Part shown: positions 3,752-14,019 of the stretch, piece after piece
How positions within the stretch are numbered: the stretch's first letter is position 1
How the letters are laid out: the number at the start of each line of letters is the position of its first letter
Notes under the pieces: generated by a model
Told to the model about the DNA's origin: nothing
The model's database searches: none
Seen by the model: only the letters and a program-made list of their open reading frames with translations
Assembly (NCBI RefSeq): GCF_054482525.1
Contig: NZ_JBTHVG010000007.1
Origin: a plasmid
Reading direction: 5' to 3' (one strand)
DNA: 64,000 bases
Translations under genes and position numbers: made by a program

Positions 3752-4765
3752 ATGAAAACCGCCACTGCGCCGTTACCACCGCTGCGTTCGGTCAAGGTTC
3801 TGGACCAGTTGCGTGAGCGCATACGCTACTTGCATTACAGTTTACGAACCGAACAGGCTTATGTCCACTGGGTTCGTGCCTTCATCCGTTTCCACGGTGT
3901 GCGTCACCCGGCAACCTTGGGCAGCAGCGAAGTCGAGGCATTTCTGTCCTGGCTGGCGAACGAGCGCAAGGTTTCGGTCTCCACGCATCGTCAGGCATTG
4001 GCGGCCTTGCTGTTCTTCTACGGCAAGGTGCTGTGCACGGATCTGCCCTGGCTTCAGGAGATCGGAAGACCTCGGCCGTCGCGGCGCTTGCCGGTGGTGC
4101 TGACCCCGGATGAAGTGGTTCGCATCCTCGGTTTTCTGGAAGGCGAGCATCGTTTGTTCGCCCAGCTTCTGTATGGAACGGGCATGCGGATCAGTGAGGG
4201 TTTGCAACTGCGGGTCAAGGATCTGGATTTCGATCACGGCACGATCATCGTGCGGGAGGGCAAGGGCTCCAAGGATCGGGCCTTGATGTTACCCGAGAGC
4301 TTGGCACCCAGCCTGCGCGAGCAGCTGTCGCGTGCACGGGCATGGTGGCTGAAGGACCAGGCCGAGGGCCGCAGCGGCGTTGCGCTTCCCGACGCCCTTG
4401 AGCGGAAGTATCCGCGCGCCGGGCATTCCTGGCCGTGGTTCTGGGTTTTTGCGCAGCACACGCATTCGACCGATCCACGGAGCGGTGTCGTGCGTCGCCA
4501 TCACATGTATGACCAGACCTTTCAGCGCGCCTTCAAACGTGCCGTAGAACAAGCAGGCATCACGAAGCCCGCCACACCGCACACCCTCCGCCACTCGTTC
4601 GCGACGGCCTTGCTCCGCAGCGGTTACGACATTCGAACTGTGCAGGATCTGCTCGGCCATTCCGACGTCTCTACGACGATGATTTACACGCATGTGCTGA
4701 AAGTTGGCGGTGCCGGAGTGCGCTCACCGCTTGATGCGCTGCCGCCCCTCACTAGTGAGAGGTAG
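3752..4765 (+). CDS. intI1: Class 1 integron integrase IntI1
   Basis: 337-aa [53 protein letters not shown]..., tyrosine recombinase motifs (HTLRHSFAT...[15 protein letters not shown]). Confidence 0.95.
3839..3867 (-). promoter_or_regulatory. Integron cassette promoter Pc (TGGACA - 17 bp - TAAACT, the hybrid PcH1 configuration) inside the 5' end of intI1
   Basis: Minus-strand -35 TGGACA (3862-3867) and -10 TAAACT (3839-3844) with 17-bp spacer, directed into the cassette array. Confidence 0.6.
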
Positions 4766-4942
4766 GGCAGCGCAAGTCAATCCTGGCGGATTCACTACCC
4801 CTGCGCGAAGGCCATCGGTGCCGCATCGAACGGCCGGTTGCGGAAAGTCCTCCCTGCGTCCGCTGATGGCCGGCAGCAGCCCGTCGTTGCCTGATGGATC
4901 CAACCCCTCCGCTGCTATAGTGCAGTCGGCTTCTGACGTTCA

Positions 4943-4967
4943 GTGCAGCCGTCTTCTGAAAACGACA
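4943..4967. repeat. IRi, 25-bp terminal inverted repeat at the intI1 end of the class 1 integron
   Basis: Sequence gtgcagccgtcttctgaaaacgaca is the complement of TGTCGTTTTCAGAAGACGGCTGCAC. Confidence 0.75.
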
Positions 4968-5318
4968 ATGGAGGTGGTAGCCGAGGGTGTGGAAACACCC
5001 GACTGCCTTGCGTGGTTGCGGCAGGCGGGTTGCGACACGGTGCAGGGTTTCCTGTTCGCCAGGCCGATGCCGGCGGCGGCCTTCGTCGGCTTCGTCAACC
5101 AATGGAGGAACACCACCATGAACGCCAATGAACCGAGCACCAGTTGCTGCGTGTGCTGCAAGGAAATCCCGCTCGATGCCGCCTTCACGCCGGAAGGGGC
5201 CGAGTACGTGGAGCATTTCTGCGGGCTGGAGTGCTATCAGCGCTTCCAGGCGCGGGCCAGCACTGCGACCGAAACCAGCGTCAAACCGGACGCTTGTGAT
5301 TCGCCGCCGTCAGGTTGA
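4968..5318 (+). CDS. tnpM: TnpM (C-terminal remnant of urf2, EAL-domain protein) of Tn21
   Basis: 116-aa ORF starting immediately after IRi: [42 protein letters not shown]...; Tn21 backbone context. Confidence 0.7.
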
Positions 5319-5443
5319 GGCATACCCTAACCTGATGTCAGATGCCATGTGTAAATTGCGTCAGGATAGGATTGAATTTTGAATTTATTGACATATCTCG
5401 TTGAAGGTCATAGAGTCTTCCCTGACATTTTGCAGGGAATTCC

Positions 5444-5601
5444 ATGACTGGACAGCGCATTGGGTATATCAGGGTCAGCACCTTCGACCAGAACCCGGAA
5501 CGGCAACTGGAAGGCGTCAAGGTTGATCGCGCTTTTAGCGACAAGGCATCCGGCAAGGATGTCAAGCGTCCGCAACTGGAAGCGCTGATAAGCTTCGCCC
5601 G
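5444..5601 (+). pseudogene. tnpR: Tn21 resolvase tnpR, 5' fragment truncated by IS26
   Basis: MTGQRIGYIRVSTFDQNPERQLEGVKVDRAFSDKASGKDVKRPQLEALISFAR then the IS26 inverted repeat; serine recombinase N-terminus. Confidence 0.8.
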
Positions 5602-6421
5602 GGCACTGTTGCAAAGTTAGCGATGAGGCAGCCTTTTGTCTTATTCAAAGGCCTTACATTTCAAAAACTCTGCTTACCAGGCGCATTTCGCCCAGGGGAT
5701 CACCATAATAAAATGCTGAGGTCTGGCCTTTGCGTAGTGCACGCATCACCTCAATACCTTTGATGGTGGCGTAAGCCGTCTTCATGGATTTAAATCCCAG
5801 CGTGGCGTTGATTATCCGTTTCAGTTTGCCATGATCGCATTCAATCACGTTGTTCCGGTACTTAATCTGTCGGTGTTCAACGTCAGACGGGCACCGGCCT
5901 TCGCGTTTGAGCAGAGCAAGCGCGCGACCATAGGCGGGCGCTTTATCCGTGTTGATGAATCGTGGGATCTGCCACTTCTTCACGTTGTTGAGGATTTTAC
6001 CCAGAAACCGGTATGCAGCTTTGCTGTTACGACGGGAGGAGAGATAAAAATCGACAGTGCGGCCCCGGCTGTCGACGGCCCGGTACAGATACGCCCAGCG
6101 GCCATTGACCTTCACGTAGGTTTCATCCATGTGCCACGGGCAAAGATCGGAAGGGTTACGCCAGTACCAGCGCAGCCGTTTTTCCATTTCAGGCGCATAA
6201 CGCTGAACCCAGCGGTAAATCGTGGAGTGATCGACATTCACTCCGCGTTCAGCCAGCATCTCCTGCAGCTCACGGTAACTGATGCCGTATTTGCAGTACC
6301 AGCGTACGGCCCACAGAATGATGTCACGCTGAAAATGCCGGCCTTTGAATGGGTTCATGTGCAGCTCCATCAGCAAAAGGGGATGATAAGTTTATCACCA
6401 CCGACTATTTGCAACAGTGCC
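5602..6421 (-). mobile_element. IS26 copy 1 (820 bp, IS6 family)
   Basis: Bounded by GGCACTGTTGCAAA terminal inverted repeats; encodes Tnp26. Confidence 0.95.
5654..6358 (-). CDS. tnpA: IS26 transposase Tnp26 (copy 1; carries a Thr where copies 2 and 3 have Ala in ...RKGQ[T/A]SAFYY...)
   Basis: MNPFKGRHFQRDIILWAVRWYCKYGISYRELQEMLAERGVNVDHSTIYRWVQRYAPEMEK... Confidence 0.95.
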   Translation of the reverse strand: MNPFKGRHFQRDIILWAVRWYCKYGISYRELQEMLAERGVNVDHSTIYRWVQRYAPEMEKRLRWYWRNPSDLCPWHMDETYVKVNGRWAYLYRAVDSRGRTVDFYLSSRRNSKAAYRFLGKILNNVKKWQIPRFINTDKAPAYGRALALLKREGRCPSDVEHRQIKYRNNVIECDHGKLKRIINATLGFKSMKTAYATIKGIEVMRALRKGQTSAFYYGDPLGEMRLVSRVFEM

Positions 6422-7713
6422 GTCGTAAACGGTCGAGTTTCATGATCCGTTTGAGGTGGGCGAAAAGCATCTCCACCTTCTTTCGTTCGCAGCGAGAGAC
6501 GAGGTACTCCGGTGTCTTGGCGATGCGTCGAGCCACGTCGCGGGCAGCCTCATGGATGCTGCGGACGATCTTCCGATTCGGCGTGTTGGGGCAGCATTTC
6601 GCTTTCAACGGGCAGGTGGCGCAGTCGGTTTGGCTGGAGCGGTAAATGACGGTTTTGGCCTTAGTTACCCGCGACCTTTGCTGGGTGAAGGCGCGCCATT
6701 CACTGCGTAGCGGTTTGCCGGCTGGGCAGCGATATTCATTGGCGTCCTGACTCCAGTGAAAGTCGTTACTGGAGAGGCTGTCGTCCTTGCGCTCGGTCTT
6801 GTCCCACACCGGCACATGCGGTTCGATGTCCTTTTCTTCGACCATCCAGGCCAGCATCGGGGCGGTGCCATAAGCGGTATCGCCGATAAGGCGTTCCGGT
6901 GTGAGATCGAACTGCGCCTCGACACGCTCGACCATCGTCCTAGTCGAATCGACTTCGGCGGTACGGTGCGCCGGGGTAGCTTCCACGTCCATGATCACAC
7001 CGTGCTCAGTGTCGATCAGGTAATTCGTGGAGTAGGCAAAAAAGGCCGGGCCACCTGGCGCTGCTGTCCAACGGGACTGAGGATCAGTGAGCGAAATTTT
7101 CTTGGGAAGAGCCTCAGCCAGCGCCTCTTCATCAAGGGCTTCGAGGTACTCGCGCACTGCGCGGCTGCTGAGCTTTGGATCGTTCCAATCGACCTCATCT
7201 CCCGCCACCCCACGTTGCCGGCTGGCATCCGCCTTAATGATGCTGGCGTCGACGGCGAAACCTTCACCCTTGACTAGGCCGGCTGCCATGCAGCGCCGCA
7301 GCACCTCATTGAATAACCAGCGGAATAGATCGCTGTCACGAAAACGCCCATGGCGATTCTTCGAGAAGGTCGAGTGATTGGGGACTTCGTCTTCCAGACC
7401 CAACCGGCAGAACCAGCGATAGGCCAGGTTCAGGTGCACCTCTTCGCACAATCGCCGCTCGGAACGAATGCCATAGCAAGTAGCCGACGACCAGCATGCG
7501 CACCATCAACTCCGGGTCAATCGAGGGACGCCCGATGGGGCTATAGAAATCTGCCAGGTAGGCACGTAGATCACTGAGATCCAAGCACTGGTCGATGCTG
7601 CGCAGGAGATGTTGGGCCGGGACGTGATCTTCCAGATTGAACGAGTAGAACAGGCGCTGCTGTCCTCCCGGTAACTGTCCCATCATGCTGTTCGCCCCCA
7701 CGCTCGCTGACAA
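6422..7713 (-). pseudogene. IS5/IS1182-family transposase, frameshifted and 3'-truncated by IS26
   Basis: Two overlapping minus-strand frames (N-part MSASVGANSMMGQLPGGQQRLFYSFNLEDHVPAQHLLRSIDQ...; C-part with DDE-like region) that together resemble one transposase; reading frame runs into the IS26 end. Confidence 0.55.
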
Positions 7714-7800
7714 AGCAATTTTGCCAACGGCATGGGGAGGCCGCTACTTTTTCAACAGAATCGGCCGCACACAGCCATTCGGCTCAACAGAACCCTGCCT

Positions 7801-8958
7801 TTACCCCACCAAACTCCGGAAACTCGCCCGGTAGTCCGTCGGCTTGAGATGCACATGTTGGCTGAGGTCGCCGGGTAGCGTGAACAGGCGCGGACCGTCC
7901 CGAAACTGGAACACGCGATACAGATGGAATTGATCGCCCGCCTCCTTGGAGAATTCGAGTTCGTTGTGGCTGACCAAGAAAGACGAGCCTACCCCGCCAT
8001 TGGTGGTTTTCACCTCGATGAAGCGCTCATGGGCGTCCTCTTCGAACGACAGGATGTCGAACCCCGCACCGTCTCCCTGGGTGTCGGACACCCAATCCAG
8101 CCGCTGAAAAAGCTCTGGGTGGCCGAGCTCGGTCAGGCGTTGCTGTTCGTAGCCAATCACCCACTGCTCCCCTGCCCGGCCCAGCTTGCGGTTGGCTTCA
8201 TCGCGAGCGGCATAATCGAACTTTCGCGGTAGGCGTTGCCGTAGAGATGCCGGGGTACGCACAAGCACTTCACGGGCGGGTGGTTCTACCAAAGCCGCTC
8301 GGTAGGTTTTGTCACCCGGAAGTTTTACCTCCTCCAGGGCATCGACAAGAGCGCCGACCGTCTGCTGATGTTCCAGAACGTAGGCGTGTACGGATTTACG
8401 CAGCAGCAGTTGGCTGTTGCCGCGTGGCTTGTAGCCGTTGATATAGGGCAGGCCCAGGGCATCGAGTACGGCGCTAATGTTCTGGTGCTTGAGCTCGACT
8501 GAAGACTTGCTGCGACCGTTCAGCAGTTGGCGCAGTGCCTGGTTGTGCTCGGACTTGTTGTACGGCTCCCCAGCCGCCTCGGCACGCAGCATGTCGAAAT
8601 AGTCTTCGACCGTGGCCAGGACCTCTTCTTCGGACCAGTCTTCGCCGATGCGAATGATGCGAAACCCGAGCCGCGTCAGCGCCGGAACGACGGTCGCCTC
8701 GCCACCGGAGAAGCTGTCAGCAGTGAGCGGGCCCTGCTCGGGAAATTGCTTGCCGAAGGCCACACCGGCGATGGCCTTGGAATCGCAATCGGTGCCGGTC
8801 TTCGGATCACGTACCAGGAAGTCGCGGGACTTGCCGTAGCCGTGGCGCGCCAGGAATTTCGTGCGGCCCAGTTGCACGAACTCATCGATGGCAGCCTGCA
8901 CGGCGGCGGGGCTTCGAAGCTGGGAGAGTTGAGACACAGGGTCCTTCCTTACTGTCAT
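7801..8958 (-). CDS. Putative restriction-endonuclease-like protein: N-terminal DNA-binding-like domain plus C-terminal DUF3883/NOV-C-like PD-(D/E)xK nuclease domain (function inferred)
   Basis: 385 aa from ATG at 8958 (MTVRKDPVSQ...); C-terminal region ...GAGFDILSFEEDAHERFIEVKTTNGG...HLYRVFQF resembles a D...E.K nuclease core. The ORF track extends to 9114 but the upstream part overlaps a separate small ORF. Confidence 0.45.
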   Translation of the reverse strand: MTVRKDPVSQLSQLRSPAAVQAAIDEFVQLGRTKFLARHGYGKSRDFLVRDPKTGTDCDSKAIAGVAFGKQFPEQGPLTADSFSGGEATVVPALTRLGFRIIRIGEDWSEEEVLATVEDYFDMLRAEAAGEPYNKSEHNQALRQLLNGRSKSSVELKHQNISAVLDALGLPYINGYKPRGNSQLLLRKSVHAYVLEHQQTVGALVDALEEVKLPGDKTYRAALVEPPAREVLVRTPASLRQRLPRKFDYAARDEANRKLGRAGEQWVIGYEQQRLTELGHPELFQRLDWVSDTQGDGAGFDILSFEEDAHERFIEVKTTNGGVGSSFLVSHNELEFSKEAGDQFHLYRVFQFRDGPRLFTLPGDLSQHVHLKPTDYRASFRSLVG

Positions 8959-8987
8959 GGTGTGCCGGGAACCGCCGAGCCACGAGA

Positions 8988-9233
8988 TTATGAGTAGCCC
9001 CTGAACAGAAACGTCACGATAAAAGCCGTGAACGCCACCAGGCCCATTAAATCCCTTGCGTATTTGCAGCCCGTGCTGTCCAAACCTGTACCAGGTCCGA
9101 TCAACACGCTCCAACCATTGAGGTACGAAAACACCGCCTGACCGAACAAAAAATGCGTGATAGCCGCCGCAGCCATGACGCCGGAATCGTCAGACAGGCT
9201 GTAGCTGTTGACCATTGCCCTGTACGCCTGCAT
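8988..9233 (-). CDS. Small hydrophobic protein (81 aa), possibly co-transcribed with the downstream nuclease-like gene
   Basis: ORF MQAYRAMVNSY...GLVAFTAFIVTFLFRGYS with hydrophobic stretches; ends about 30 bp before the ATG of the next gene on the same strand. Confidence 0.25.
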   Translation of the reverse strand: MQAYRAMVNSYSLSDDSGVMAAAAITHFLFGQAVFSYLNGWSVLIGPGTGLDSTGCKYARDLMGLVAFTAFIVTFLFRGYS

Positions 9234-9519: not shown

Positions 9520-9552
9520 GCGGACGTGGCGAAATCGGTAGACGCAGCAGAC
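9520..9552 (+). tRNA. tRNA-Leu(UAA) exon 1 fragment (positions 1-32: acceptor 5' strand, D-arm, anticodon-stem 5' strand), cut by IS26
   Basis: GCGGACG-UG-GCGAAAUCGGUAGACGC-A-GCAGA-C has a tRNA-Leu-like D-arm; acceptor strand is exactly complementary to CGUCCGC at 12929-12935 on the minus strand. Confidence 0.6.
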
Positions 9553-10372
9553 GGCACTGTTGCAAATAGTCGGTGGTGATAAACTTATCATCCCCTTTTG
9601 CTGATGGAGCTGCACATGAACCCATTCAAAGGCCGGCATTTTCAGCGTGACATCATTCTGTGGGCCGTACGCTGGTACTGCAAATACGGCATCAGTTACC
9701 GTGAGCTGCAGGAGATGCTGGCTGAACGCGGAGTGAATGTCGATCACTCCACGATTTACCGCTGGGTTCAGCGTTATGCGCCTGAAATGGAAAAACGGCT
9801 GCGCTGGTACTGGCGTAACCCTTCCGATCTTTGCCCGTGGCACATGGATGAAACCTACGTGAAGGTCAATGGCCGCTGGGCGTATCTGTACCGGGCCGTC
9901 GACAGCCGGGGCCGCACTGTCGATTTTTATCTCTCCTCCCGTCGTAACAGCAAAGCTGCATACCGGTTTCTGGGTAAAATCCTCAACAACGTGAAGAAGT
10001 GGCAGATCCCACGATTCATCAACACGGATAAAGCGCCCGCCTATGGTCGCGCGCTTGCTCTGCTCAAACGCGAAGGCCGGTGCCCGTCTGACGTTGAACA
10101 CCGACAGATTAAGTACCGGAACAACGTGATTGAATGCGATCATGGCAAACTGAAACGGATAATCAACGCCACGCTGGGATTTAAATCCATGAAGACGGCT
10201 TACGCCACCATCAAAGGTATTGAGGTGATGCGTGCACTACGCAAAGGCCAGGCCTCAGCATTTTATTATGGTGATCCCCTGGGCGAAATGCGCCTGGTAA
10301 GCAGAGTTTTTGAAATGTAAGGCCTTTGAATAAGACAAAAGGCTGCCTCATCGCTAACTTTGCAACAGTGCC
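9553..10372 (+). mobile_element. IS26 copy 2 (820 bp)
   Basis: GGCACTGTTGCAAA inverted repeats; Tnp26 ORF on plus strand; 8 bp to its left (9545-9552) are CAGCAGAC. Confidence 0.95.
9616..10320 (+). CDS. tnpA: IS26 transposase Tnp26 (copy 2)
   Basis: Translation identical to copy 3. Confidence 0.95.
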   Translation: MNPFKGRHFQRDIILWAVRWYCKYGISYRELQEMLAERGVNVDHSTIYRWVQRYAPEMEKRLRWYWRNPSDLCPWHMDETYVKVNGRWAYLYRAVDSRGRTVDFYLSSRRNSKAAYRFLGKILNNVKKWQIPRFINTDKAPAYGRALALLKREGRCPSDVEHRQIKYRNNVIECDHGKLKRIINATLGFKSMKTAYATIKGIEVMRALRKGQASAFYYGDPLGEMRLVSRVFEM

Positions 10373-11381
10373 GGACTTTTCAAGTCTCGGAAGGTTTCTT
10401 CAATCTGCATTCGCTTCGAATAGATATTAACAAGTTGTTTGGGTGTTCGAATTTCAACAGGTAAGTTAGTTGCTAGAACCCATGGCTCCTTTGCCGACGC
10501 TGAGTAGATTTTAGGTGACGGGTGGTGACAATGAGTCCGTGTCGAGCGCTGATTTTTTCGGCCTTTAGAGCGAGATTTATACAATAGAATTTGGCATGAG
10601 ATTGGATTGCTTTTAGTCAGCCTCTTATAGCCTAAAGTCTTTGAGTGACTAGATGACATATCATGTAAGTTGCTGATAGGTTTCCAGTTTTCCGCTCCTA
10701 GGTCTGCATATTGTACTTTTCCTCTTACTCGACTTAACCAGTACCAACCCAGCTTCTCAACGGATTTATACCATGGCACTTTAAAGCCAGCATCACTGAC
10801 AATGAGCGGTGTGGTGTTACTCGGTAGAATGCTCGCAAGGTCGGCTAGAAATTGGTCATGAGCTTTCTTTGAACATTGCTCTGAAAGCGGGAACGCTTTC
10901 TCATAAAGAGTAACAGAACGACCGTGTAGTGCGACTGAAGCTCGCAATACCATAAGTCGTTTTTGCTCACGAATATCAGACCAGTCAACAAGTACAATGG
11001 GCATCGTATTGCCCGAACAGATAAAGCTAGCATGCCAACGGTATACAGCGAGTCGCTCTTTGTGGAGGTGACGATTACCTAACAATCGGTCGATTCGTTT
11101 GATGTTATGTTTTGTTCTCGCTTTGGTTGGCAGGTTACGGCCAAGTTCGGTAAGAGTGAGAGTTTTACAGTCAAGTAATGCGTGGCAAGCCAACGTTAAG
11201 CTGTTGAGTCGTTTTAAGTGTAATTCGGGGCAGAATTGGTAAAGAGAGTCGTGTAAAATATCGAGTTCGCACATCTTGTTGTCTGATTATTGATTTTTCG
11301 CGAAACCATTTGATCATATGACAAGATGTGTATCCACCTTAACTTAATGATTTTTACCAAAATCATTAGGGGATTCATCAG
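10373..11381 (-). mobile_element. Truncated IS10 (outer end plus 5' two-thirds of the transposase gene), cut by IS26
   Basis: Outer end ...CTGATGAATCCCCTAATGATTTTGGTAAAAATCATTAAG (complement at 11343-11381); partial transposase MCELDILHDSLYQFCPELHLKRLNSLTLACHALLDCKTLTLTELGRNLPTKARTKHNIKRIDRLLGNRHLHKERLAVYRWH... (IS4 family, IS10-like) whose frame runs into IS26. Confidence 0.85.
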
Positions 11382-12924: not shown

Positions 12925-12975
12925 GTGGTGCGGACGACGGGACTCGAACCCGTACTCTCACAGAGAAGCAGATTT
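12925..12975 (-). tRNA. tRNA-Leu(UAA) exon 2 (A35 to CCA: anticodon AA, anticodon-stem 3' strand, long variable arm, T-arm, acceptor 3' strand)
   Basis: Minus-strand RNA AAAA-UCUGC-UUCUCUGUGAGAGU-ACGGGUUCGAGUCCCGU-CGUCCGC-A-CCA; stems pair with the exon 1 fragment at 9520-9552. Confidence 0.6.
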
Positions 12976-13189
12976 TCGTACCACCTCGACTTTCGCCGCC
13001 GTCTGATGACGTTCGTGGTCTGGACTGTCCCTTCGCCATTGCCCGAAGGCTTTAGGCGCCGCCCGTCCAGTCTCTACACCTTCCCCCGAAGGGGCTTGGC
13101 TCGGGATTGGCTTAGGGTATTGCCCGTTAGCGTTCCCCGACTTTGAGCGGTTCTACTCCGCGGATTTCCCCGCGGGCACTCCAATTTTA
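12976..13189 (-). ncRNA. Group I (tRNA-Leu-type) intron, about 214 nt, inserted between U34 and A35 of tRNA-Leu(UAA)
   Basis: Follows exon ...CUU; ends with G before exon 2; contains elements recalled from cyanobacterial tRNA-Leu and Azoarcus tRNA-Ile introns (CCCGAGCCAAGCC; GAAGGUGUAGAGACUGGACGGG...CCUAA). Confidence 0.6.
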
Positions 13190-13199
13190 AAGTCTGCTG

Positions 13200-14019
13200 G
13201 GCACTGTTGCAAAGTTAGCGATGAGGCAGCCTTTTGTCTTATTCAAAGGCCTTACATTTCAAAAACTCTGCTTACCAGGCGCATTTCGCCCAGGGGATCA
13301 CCATAATAAAATGCTGAGGCCTGGCCTTTGCGTAGTGCACGCATCACCTCAATACCTTTGATGGTGGCGTAAGCCGTCTTCATGGATTTAAATCCCAGCG
13401 TGGCGTTGATTATCCGTTTCAGTTTGCCATGATCGCATTCAATCACGTTGTTCCGGTACTTAATCTGTCGGTGTTCAACGTCAGACGGGCACCGGCCTTC
13501 GCGTTTGAGCAGAGCAAGCGCGCGACCATAGGCGGGCGCTTTATCCGTGTTGATGAATCGTGGGATCTGCCACTTCTTCACGTTGTTGAGGATTTTACCC
13601 AGAAACCGGTATGCAGCTTTGCTGTTACGACGGGAGGAGAGATAAAAATCGACAGTGCGGCCCCGGCTGTCGACGGCCCGGTACAGATACGCCCAGCGGC
13701 CATTGACCTTCACGTAGGTTTCATCCATGTGCCACGGGCAAAGATCGGAAGGGTTACGCCAGTACCAGCGCAGCCGTTTTTCCATTTCAGGCGCATAACG
13801 CTGAACCCAGCGGTAAATCGTGGAGTGATCGACATTCACTCCGCGTTCAGCCAGCATCTCCTGCAGCTCACGGTAACTGATGCCGTATTTGCAGTACCAG
13901 CGTACGGCCCACAGAATGATGTCACGCTGAAAATGCCGGCCTTTGAATGGGTTCATGTGCAGCTCCATCAGCAAAAGGGGATGATAAGTTTATCACCACC
14001 GACTATTTGCAACAGTGCC
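13200..14019 (-). mobile_element. IS26 copy 3 (820 bp)
   Basis: GGCACTGTTGCAAA inverted repeats; 8 bp to its left (13192-13199) are GTCTGCTG, the reverse complement of CAGCAGAC. Confidence 0.95.
13252..13956 (-). CDS. tnpA: IS26 transposase Tnp26 (copy 3)
   Basis: Translation identical to copy 2. Confidence 0.95.
   Translation of the reverse strand: MNPFKGRHFQRDIILWAVRWYCKYGISYRELQEMLAERGVNVDHSTIYRWVQRYAPEMEKRLRWYWRNPSDLCPWHMDETYVKVNGRWAYLYRAVDSRGRTVDFYLSSRRNSKAAYRFLGKILNNVKKWQIPRFINTDKAPAYGRALALLKREGRCPSDVEHRQIKYRNNVIECDHGKLKRIINATLGFKSMKTAYATIKGIEVMRALRKGQASAFYYGDPLGEMRLVSRVFEM

Follow-up and report, generated by a model that had tools for sequence, protein, structure and literature searches.

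The question raised by this stretch of DNA, a window of 64,000 nucleotides from a plasmid (NCBI RefSeq assembly GCF_054482525.1, contig NZ_JBTHVG010000007.1), is what an intact gene for a putative nuclease, orf1182, does inside a resistance module spread with the insertion sequence (IS) IS26, and whether its product could work as a defence protein by itself. Our analysis favours, with a probability of about 0.55, an autonomous defence-type nuclease of the PDC-S36 family that hitchhikes on the resistance module; that it acts specifically in the manner of a type IV restriction enzyme is put forward tentatively. The gene and the parts of its product are as follows, with residues numbered here and below according to the 378-residue form of the protein unless the 385-residue form is named.

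7801..8937, minus strand: nuclease gene (orf1182, WP_000080860.1), 378 residues, GTG start, intact
8647..8937, minus strand: ScoMcrA-type N-terminal head domain (PF26345, ScoMcrA_N), residues 1–97
8323..8646, minus strand: helical middle domain, residues 98–205
8218..8322, minus strand: variable linker, residues 206–240 (predicted local distance difference test score, pLDDT, of 55–72 in the full-length model; poorly conserved alignment columns)
7804..8217, minus strand: NOV_C/DUF3883 (PF13020) PD-(D/E)xK nuclease domain, residues 241–378
8167–8169, 8056–8058, 8014–8016 and 8008–8010, minus strand: catalytic candidates E257, D294, E308 and K310, respectively

The open reading frame (ORF) that contains the gene spans 7801..9114 on the minus strand (437 residues counted from a TTG in the ORF list). 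An earlier note on this DNA, made from the letters alone, had described a protein of 385 residues; the frame is real and intact, although the ATG at 8958 from which that form is counted lies seven codons upstream of the likely start. A strong Shine–Dalgarno sequence (AAGGAAGG) stands 5–6 nt upstream of the GTG at 8937, and the ATG at 8958 has none (the sequence directly upstream of the start region contains ...ACCATGACAGTAAGGAAGGACCCTGTG...). Because, in addition, the RefSeq protein (named 'DUF3883 domain-containing protein') has 378 residues, nearly all orthologues have 378–380 residues and the DNA homology between orthologous loci and the gene starts at 8936–8956, GTG 8937 is likely to be the true start. 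The GC fraction of the gene is 0.61, in agreement with the earlier estimate of about 60% for the segment.

The C-terminal domain contains the motif GAGFDILSF...FIEVKTT and is matched by Pfam NOV_C (PF13020, formerly DUF3883) over residues 263–360 of the 385-residue form (E value of 2e-21, model positions 1–90 of 91), which bears out the earlier proposal of a restriction-endonuclease fold of this type. Two alignments, one of 36 full-length and one of 39 N-extended relatives, show little or no variation at E257, D294, E308 and K310 (none at the last three), which make up the E...D...ExK constellation of PD-(D/E)xK enzymes; D294 and E308/K310 sit on neighbouring strands in the predicted structure. 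The best fold matches of the domain are Holliday-junction resolvases (Hjc) and the homing endonuclease I-Ssp6803I, and in the model the predicted PD-(D/E)xK site is complete on an Hjc-like fold. Neither an assignment to a non-nuclease family nor a loss of catalytic residues, either of which the earlier note would have taken as evidence against a nuclease, was encountered.

The middle domain is built of helices, the first three of which (residues 103–160) have a homeodomain/Myb-like three-helix fold. Its invariant residues are W101, Y113, K128, K150, N153, G168 and Q176, with K150 and N153 located on helix 3, the 'recognition' helix; a profile of the domain found no matches among PDB sequences. 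The suspicion that the N-terminus is a head domain of the kind found in type IV enzymes proved correct. Precomputed Pfam annotations of all close homologues combine PF26345 (ScoMcrA_N) with PF13020, and a profile of 36 family members matches the head of ScoMcrA (PDB entry 5zmm, residues 9–94) with an E value of 1.2e-17. The family profile was needed to establish this relationship, because a PDB search with the single nuclease sequence returned only a marginal match to 5zmm (E value of 0.4). PADLOC also reports a weak match of the N-terminus to a type IV enzyme model (E value of 0.0014). Stand-alone ScoMcrA_N proteins of about 95–105 residues occur on long contigs (P0320, P0355 and P0413; for example in Pseudodesulfovibrio senegalensis), which suggests that the head may function as a module by itself; the protein search with the head-domain profile returned mostly fragments of about 100–190 residues or stand-alone head proteins.

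A defence-system finder, as had been proposed for a check, places the protein in a candidate family: PADLOC matches residues 105–380 of the 385-residue form to its model PDC-S36 (PDLC05008; model positions 4–279 of 280, E value of 6.5e-107), which it treats as a single-gene candidate. PDC stands for 'phage defence candidate' (PMC11514479). NCBIfam and PHROGs scans of the nuclease gave no matches, and Pfam and PADLOC scans of the 378-residue protein revealed no nucleoside triphosphatase (NTPase) domain.

A full HMMER search of 1.84 billion cluster representatives yielded 8,116 relatives with an E value of 1e-3 or lower, 778 of which reach 1e-30 or lower. Among the best 148 relatives, 65 consist of the core only (about 280 residues, middle domain plus NOV_C, equivalent to the PDC-S36 model), 46 carry the ScoMcrA head and 38 have other N-terminal extensions of 40–350 residues. 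An EVE domain, which is a PUA-type reader of modified bases, is present in three of the 39 N-extended members (a set that includes a few that also bear the ScoMcrA head); the extensions of the remaining members match nothing in Pfam or PADLOC, and in ten relatives with long N-termini PADLOC recognised no module in the added part. The full-length match to PDC-S36 also holds in ten N-extended relatives. Judged by these sequences, family members share one core, DNA-binding-like part plus nuclease, and the module in front of it is interchangeable (none, ScoMcrA head, EVE or unassigned). A constant core with swappable N-terminal modules is typical of type IV enzymes and has been reviewed for PUA/DUF3427–nuclease fusions (PMC6765204). 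Phage genomes gave only partial, distant matches to the nuclease domain.

The protein shares parts with several known systems and differs from each in others. The PDC-S36 model covers the same middle domain and NOV_C core, as found in stand-alone proteins of about 280 residues, whereas the window nuclease carries an extra head of about 97 residues (ScoMcrA_N) that the PDC-S36 model lacks. ScoMcrA itself, the type IV phosphorothioate-dependent enzyme of Streptomyces coelicolor (5zmm), shares only the head; it reads DNA through its SBD and SRA domains and cuts with an HNH domain, none of which is present here. PD-T4-1, with a model of 383 positions, is about as long and also ends in a NOV_C-type nuclease (model positions 231–377, E value of 1.8e-18), but its N-terminal 230 or so residues are unmatched, so that the head and middle domains differ. 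It is reportedly a single-gene anti-T4 system of E. coli, from the work of Vassallo et al. in 2022. HmaA, from the Hma system of Halomonas meridiana, and Tiamat TmtA likewise end in a NOV_C PD-(D/E)xK domain with a D...ExK motif (TmtA C-termini match the window nuclease at E values down to 2e-14 in PADLOC), but both exceed 1,100 residues and include Snf2 helicase or ATPase modules, unlike the 378-residue, NTPase-free window protein. In HmaA the NOV_C domain nicks supercoiled DNA in a metal-dependent manner and is required for anti-T4 defence (PMC11232893). Finally, DUF3427–DUF3883 enzymes of the YenY4I/McaZI type fuse a reader to a DUF3883 nuclease and have no methyltransferase; YenY4I (PUA-DUF3427-DUF3883) cuts DNA containing 5-methylcytosine or 5-hydroxymethylcytosine in vitro (PMC6765204). 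Their readers (PUA, DUF3427) are missing from the window nuclease and the middle domain is different. Of the features expected of type IV enzymes, the window nuclease shows the lack of a cognate methyltransferase and does not show a recognised modified-DNA reader domain.

For the origin of the gene, the relevant features of the window and of the related chromosomal loci are the following.

7763..9214: stretch homologous to chromosomes and contigs of the Stutzerimonas stutzeri group (blastn, 91.7–94.6% DNA identity)
8988..9233, minus strand: small ORF (orf228), 81 residues in the ORF list and 75 in RefSeq
L003 2810..7999: double-helicase gene
L006 2763..7907: double-helicase gene
L011 4473..9590: double-helicase gene
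L092 37..5157: double-helicase gene

The closest chromosomal relatives belong to the Stutzerimonas (Pseudomonas stutzeri) group: S. stutzeri V81 (L011) has 95% amino-acid and 91.7% DNA identity, and the metagenomic contigs L093–L095 reach 94.6% DNA identity to the captured stretch. Homology to these loci ends at window position 9214 in every case, which defines a breakpoint at 9214/9215; the other end, at 7763, lies just beyond a terminator-like hairpin 3′ of the nuclease gene. This pattern of homology identifies a chromosome of the S. stutzeri group as the source of the captured DNA. The nuclease gene differs from its V81 orthologue by 75 synonymous and 20 non-synonymous changes, with a synonymous divergence (dS) of 0.33 and a ratio of non-synonymous to synonymous divergence (dN/dS) of 0.07, and dN/dS ranges from 0.06 to 0.09 across the orthologue comparisons. 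The low value against V81 shows that the gene was under strong purifying selection in the Stutzerimonas source lineage until its capture.

In all nine of the closest loci (L003–L006, which are S. kunmingensis-type, L011 of V81 and L092–L095) a gene for a protein of about 1,710 residues (1,705–1,729) lies directly upstream of the nuclease gene, separated from it by 1–93 nt or only by an ORF of 100 residues (orf100). Its product joins a DEAD/RecQ-like superfamily 2 helicase (best PADLOC matches DpdF and PsyrT) to a UvrD/GajB-like superfamily 1 helicase. This double helicase matches no dedicated system model of PADLOC, only the generic DpdF, PsyrT and GajB helicase cores, and the protein may define an undescribed helicase–nuclease defence pair. 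Neither the window nor the plasmid module contains the helicase gene, and for the module this is certain because the donor homology stops at 9214. As a separate observation, a type III-like DNA methyltransferase gene (L011 2748..4091, plus strand; PADLOC MTase_III, E value of 6e-96) precedes the helicase–orf100–nuclease cluster in S. stutzeri V81.

The small ORF, which had been paired with the nuclease gene as its upstream neighbour, exists at the position described but is not a partner gene. In V81-like loci orf100 lies between helicase and nuclease and encodes three hydrophobic (transmembrane-like) stretches; the small ORF is orf100 with its first 27 or so codons, including the first hydrophobic stretch, swapped for unrelated sequence, and homology between the two begins at VNSYSLSDD. 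Among 5.8 billion proteins it has no homologues beyond copies of the same segment and the Stutzerimonas orf100, and it matches no family in NCBIfam, PADLOC or PHROGs. A 45%-identical 'homologue' (P0146) was rejected, being the same resistance module in a noisy assembly. Because its 5′ part has been replaced and homologues outside this lineage are lacking, we regard the small ORF as a 5′-truncated leftover. By the same comparison, capture removed the helicase gene and the 5′ part of orf100.

An alternative to an autonomous nuclease is therefore a broken two-gene system, in which helicase and nuclease act as a pair in the donor and the plasmid copy, deprived of its helicase, is inert or unregulated, a molecular fossil. 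We consider this rather unlikely, although the arrangement in the nine closest loci and the certain loss of the helicase at the 9214 breakpoint speak for it. To these can be added that operons of a nuclease and an NTPase are a common defence design (10.1101/2025.07.10.664194). The wider neighbourhoods allow the two readings to be weighed. In a set of 80 loci, one genome per species, 35 of which have a full-length (head-bearing) orthologue, a helicase gene lies near the nuclease gene in seven, and in six of the 35 with the full-length form. It is in tandem with the nuclease gene in Stutzerimonas and Pseudomonas sp. GOM6 and divergent in Variovorax paradoxus and a Comamonadaceae metagenome-assembled genome; in the seventh locus, that of Cupriavidus necator (L073), it stands in tandem beside a truncated nuclease copy. 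The helicase homologues of Variovorax, the Comamonadaceae genome and Cupriavidus show 42–44% identity; that the helicase recurs beside the nuclease in several genera and in both orientations suggests that the association is not accidental. Against a broken pair, no such helicase is found within 10 kb at 29 of the 35 full-length loci and at essentially all core-only loci, although the nuclease ORFs are intact; Pseudomonas nitroreducens (L012) and Pseudomonas sp. CAN1 (L013) have intact orthologues without helicase at 84% identity, and the former gives a dN/dS of 0.064 against the window gene. In addition, the PADLOC family model is a single-gene model and the helicase matches generic cores only. 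The helicase as an obligatory partner throughout the family was rejected, being present at only six of the 35 loci. The nuclease is thus probably autonomous, judging from its orthologues, and the helicase a frequent companion in the donor clade; the description as a single-protein system rests on family-wide statistics and not on the donor locus, because the close relatives keep the helicase.

No other neighbour is conserved. Clustering of the genes within 6 kb of the full-length orthologues gave no conserved neighbour, the commonest cluster occurring at seven of the 35 loci. Those that recur include a PDC-S41/AbiO/Nhi-like protein (seven loci) and ThsC-like HIT and PtuB-like proteins (four to six loci); further neighbours are a mad2-like methyltransferase, a type III-like methyltransferase, PDC-S44, a PbeA/Cas3-like helicase and a GajB-like UvrD, together with an OLD/GajA-like ATPase accompanied by UvrD and integrases. 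Some nuclease loci adjoin dnaA–gyrB or umuC instead. On these assignments the recurring or identifiable neighbours are largely defence-type. No methyltransferase is conserved beside the 35 full-length orthologues, the type III-like enzyme being found at one locus only. In Pseudomonas sp. GOM6 the nuclease gene is followed by a PDC-S44 candidate defence gene (L014 11258..12046, plus strand; E value of 6.5e-119).

The prevalence of the gene in its present hosts is considerable. The 2.1-kb region is found in 1,356 PLSDB plasmids, with at least 99% identity in 1,295, and the nuclease gene alone in 1,185 plasmids (Escherichia 479, Klebsiella 324, Salmonella 113, Acinetobacter 57 and others); it is also present in 599 of 5,426 complete E. 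coli genomes (about 11%, or one in nine). The near-identity of the plasmid copies reflects recent spread and is uninformative on selection. In a variant protein, WP_014837927.1 (for example L091 3475..4602, plasmid pCP53-92k), IS26 replaces the last 35 nt of the gene (11 codons) and the conserved YRA motif is lost. This IS26-truncated variant accounts for nine of 30 plasmid rows and three of eight E. coli rows in evenly spaced samples of the rankings, or about 30–40% of carriers. The abundance of the nuclease gene in the Enterobacterales is best explained by hitchhiking with the linked resistance gene and not by selection for the nuclease.

The gene was captured into the aac(3)-IId–tmrB module without its helicase and spread with IS26. 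On the preferred reading, an autonomous nuclease, the middle domain, possibly together with the head, would bind DNA and position the nuclease domain, which would then nick or cut invading DNA. The likeliest mode would resemble that of type IV enzymes, with foreign DNA restricted according to its modification or structure; it is favoured because no methyltransferase partner is conserved and the N-terminal modules are interchangeable. The strongest form of this proposal, an active autonomous restriction enzyme with a head that recognises a DNA modification or a backbone feature for which no reader has so far been assigned, is doubtful.

Several observations weigh against this picture. All nine of the closest loci retain the helicase, and the searchable literature contains no mention or experimental test of PDC-S36. 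Pfam and PADLOC detected no recognised modified-DNA reader in the nuclease (SRA, EVE/PUA, SBD, DUF3427, McrB-N or Mrr-N), and the head that might serve as one is flexibly attached in ScoMcrA and has no known function (PMC6224610). Dam+/Dcm+ E. coli tolerates the gene; if the enzyme is active, Dam and Dcm marks therefore cannot be its target. A simple consensus scan found no sigma-70-like promoter upstream of the gene, and the high proportion of IS26-truncated copies fits a passenger gene and speaks against its function being selected in the present hosts.

Less probable than a broken pair is an abortive-infection effector, held inactive until the head senses infection and then nicking host and phage DNA indiscriminately, which we regard as unlikely. 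HmaA, through its NOV_C domain, nicks supercoiled DNA with no obvious specificity and defends against T4 by abortive infection (PMC11232893), PD-T4-1 and Tiamat TmtA have the same C-terminal nuclease, and the ScoMcrA head has no known ligand; however, the EVE fusions, the ScoMcrA-type head and the conserved DNA-binding-like helix-turn-helix point to direct reading of DNA and away from the sensing of a protein or nucleotide signal, and the nuclease has no antitoxin-like or NTPase regulator. A role outside defence, as a repair or recombination nuclease (an Hjc/RecU-like structure-specific resolvase) or an IS accessory carried by chance, is very improbable: the best folds are those of Holliday-junction resolvases and a homing endonuclease, and ISCfr1-like elements directly adjoin the gene in two lineages, but the distribution is patchy, the neighbourhoods are variable and rich in defence genes without syntenic housekeeping context, ISCfr1 is absent at most nuclease loci and bacterial NOV_C domains have so far been tied to defence.

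An autonomous defence nuclease accordingly remains the reading that we prefer, and the earlier description of an uncharacterised single-protein defence gene holds in part. Defence is plausible from the PDC-S36 match, the defence-like neighbours and the precedents of the validated systems HmaA, PD-T4-1 and Tiamat, but the gene is already listed as orf1182 and in RefSeq, its family is in PADLOC, single-chain NOV_C nucleases of defence islands are known and the close relatives have an upstream helicase. What this work adds is the division of the protein into three domains, the tracing of the gene to Stutzerimonas with its helicase left behind, the recognition of the small ORF as a remnant and a figure for prevalence. 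If the nuclease is active, a defence gene would be co-mobilized with gentamicin resistance in a large share of clinical Enterobacterales and could affect the outcome of phage therapy and plasmid compatibility; the spread of the resistance module would have created an overlooked barrier to particular phages or plasmids, present in some 11% of the E. coli sequenced and on many Klebsiella, Salmonella and Acinetobacter plasmids, and would be tied to altered phage and plasmid susceptibility. It would also provide a first functional handle on the ScoMcrA head, the structure of which dates from 2018, and on the PDC-S36 core with its thousands of members. If it is inactive, the locus is a clean case of a defence-island fragment fossilized in a resistance module and indicates Stutzerimonas as one donor of the module DNA.

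The mobile elements that frame the gene are arranged as follows.

5602..6421: IS26 copy 1, left boundary, with transposase ORF and terminal repeats (GGCACTGTTGCAAA) at 5602 and 6421
6422..7777, minus strand: remnant of ISCfr1 (IS1182 family; named in PMC7096625), cut by IS26 at 6421/6422
9553..10372: IS26 copy 2, inside the anticodon stem of a tRNA-Leu gene
13200..14019: IS26 copy 3
9520..9552, plus strand, and 13199..12926, minus strand: the two parts of the split tRNA-Leu(UAA) gene, which spans L002 10121..10419, plus strand, in the canonical module

The segment 6422–9552 is flanked by IS26 copies 1 and 2, as had been described, and the dead IS1182-family transposase and the tRNA-Leu fragment reported at its two ends are both real, the former being the ISCfr1 remnant and the latter one part of a gene split by IS26. 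The edge of ISCfr1 in the window (7762..7777, minus strand) lies beside the terminator-like hairpin 3′ of the nuclease gene, and in S. kunmingensis the stop codon of the orthologue has a 95%-identical ISCfr1-like element only a few nucleotides away (L003 9143..9160). Because the orthologous gene is just 84% identical and the insertion points are about 20 nt apart, the two insertions were probably independent events at the same hairpin, which suggests that ISCfr1-like elements insert by hairpin targeting and that no shared ancestral event is involved.

The module aacC2-tmrB-orf192-orf228-orf1182-ISCfr1 has been described with no function given for orf1182 (PMC7096625); orf1182 corresponds to the nuclease gene, orf228 to the small ORF and aacC2 to aac(3)-IId. 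In the canonical module aac(3)-IId, tmrB, orf228 and orf1182 all point in the same direction, and the nuclease could be expressed by read-through from aac(3)-IId–tmrB. The insertion site of IS26 copy 2 corresponds to positions 10146–10153 of the canonical module (L002), with an 8-bp duplication (CAGCAGAC). In the window, IS26 copies 2 and 3 have inverted the aac(3)-IId–tmrB part relative to the nuclease gene, an inversion that has removed this coupling.

A 213-nt group I intron splits the tRNA-Leu(UAA) gene of the canonical module, which is complete, between U34 and A35, where the cyanobacterial and plastid intron classically sits. The Rfam model Intron_gpI matches the intron with 36.8 bits (E value of 2e-7), below the gathering score of 50. 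After in silico removal of the intron ARAGORN recovers a perfect 86-nt tRNA-Leu(taa) with an encoded CCA; because it finds nothing in the unspliced DNA, standard annotation probably misses this gene. The source organism of the tRNA, if found, could show which organism donated aac(3)-IId/tmrB. An IS10 remnant (10373..11274), located between IS26 copy 2 and aac(3)-IId, carries the full RNA-OUT antisense RNA (11267..11336, plus strand; Rfam RF00240, 98.8 bits). Upstream of IS26 copy 1, positions 4704..5620 contain what we take to be remnants of a Tn21-family transposon (the last part of a urf2-like ORF with an EAL domain, and a resolvase gene that IS26 has cut down to its 5′ portion), which fit the view of the window as a multiresistance region.

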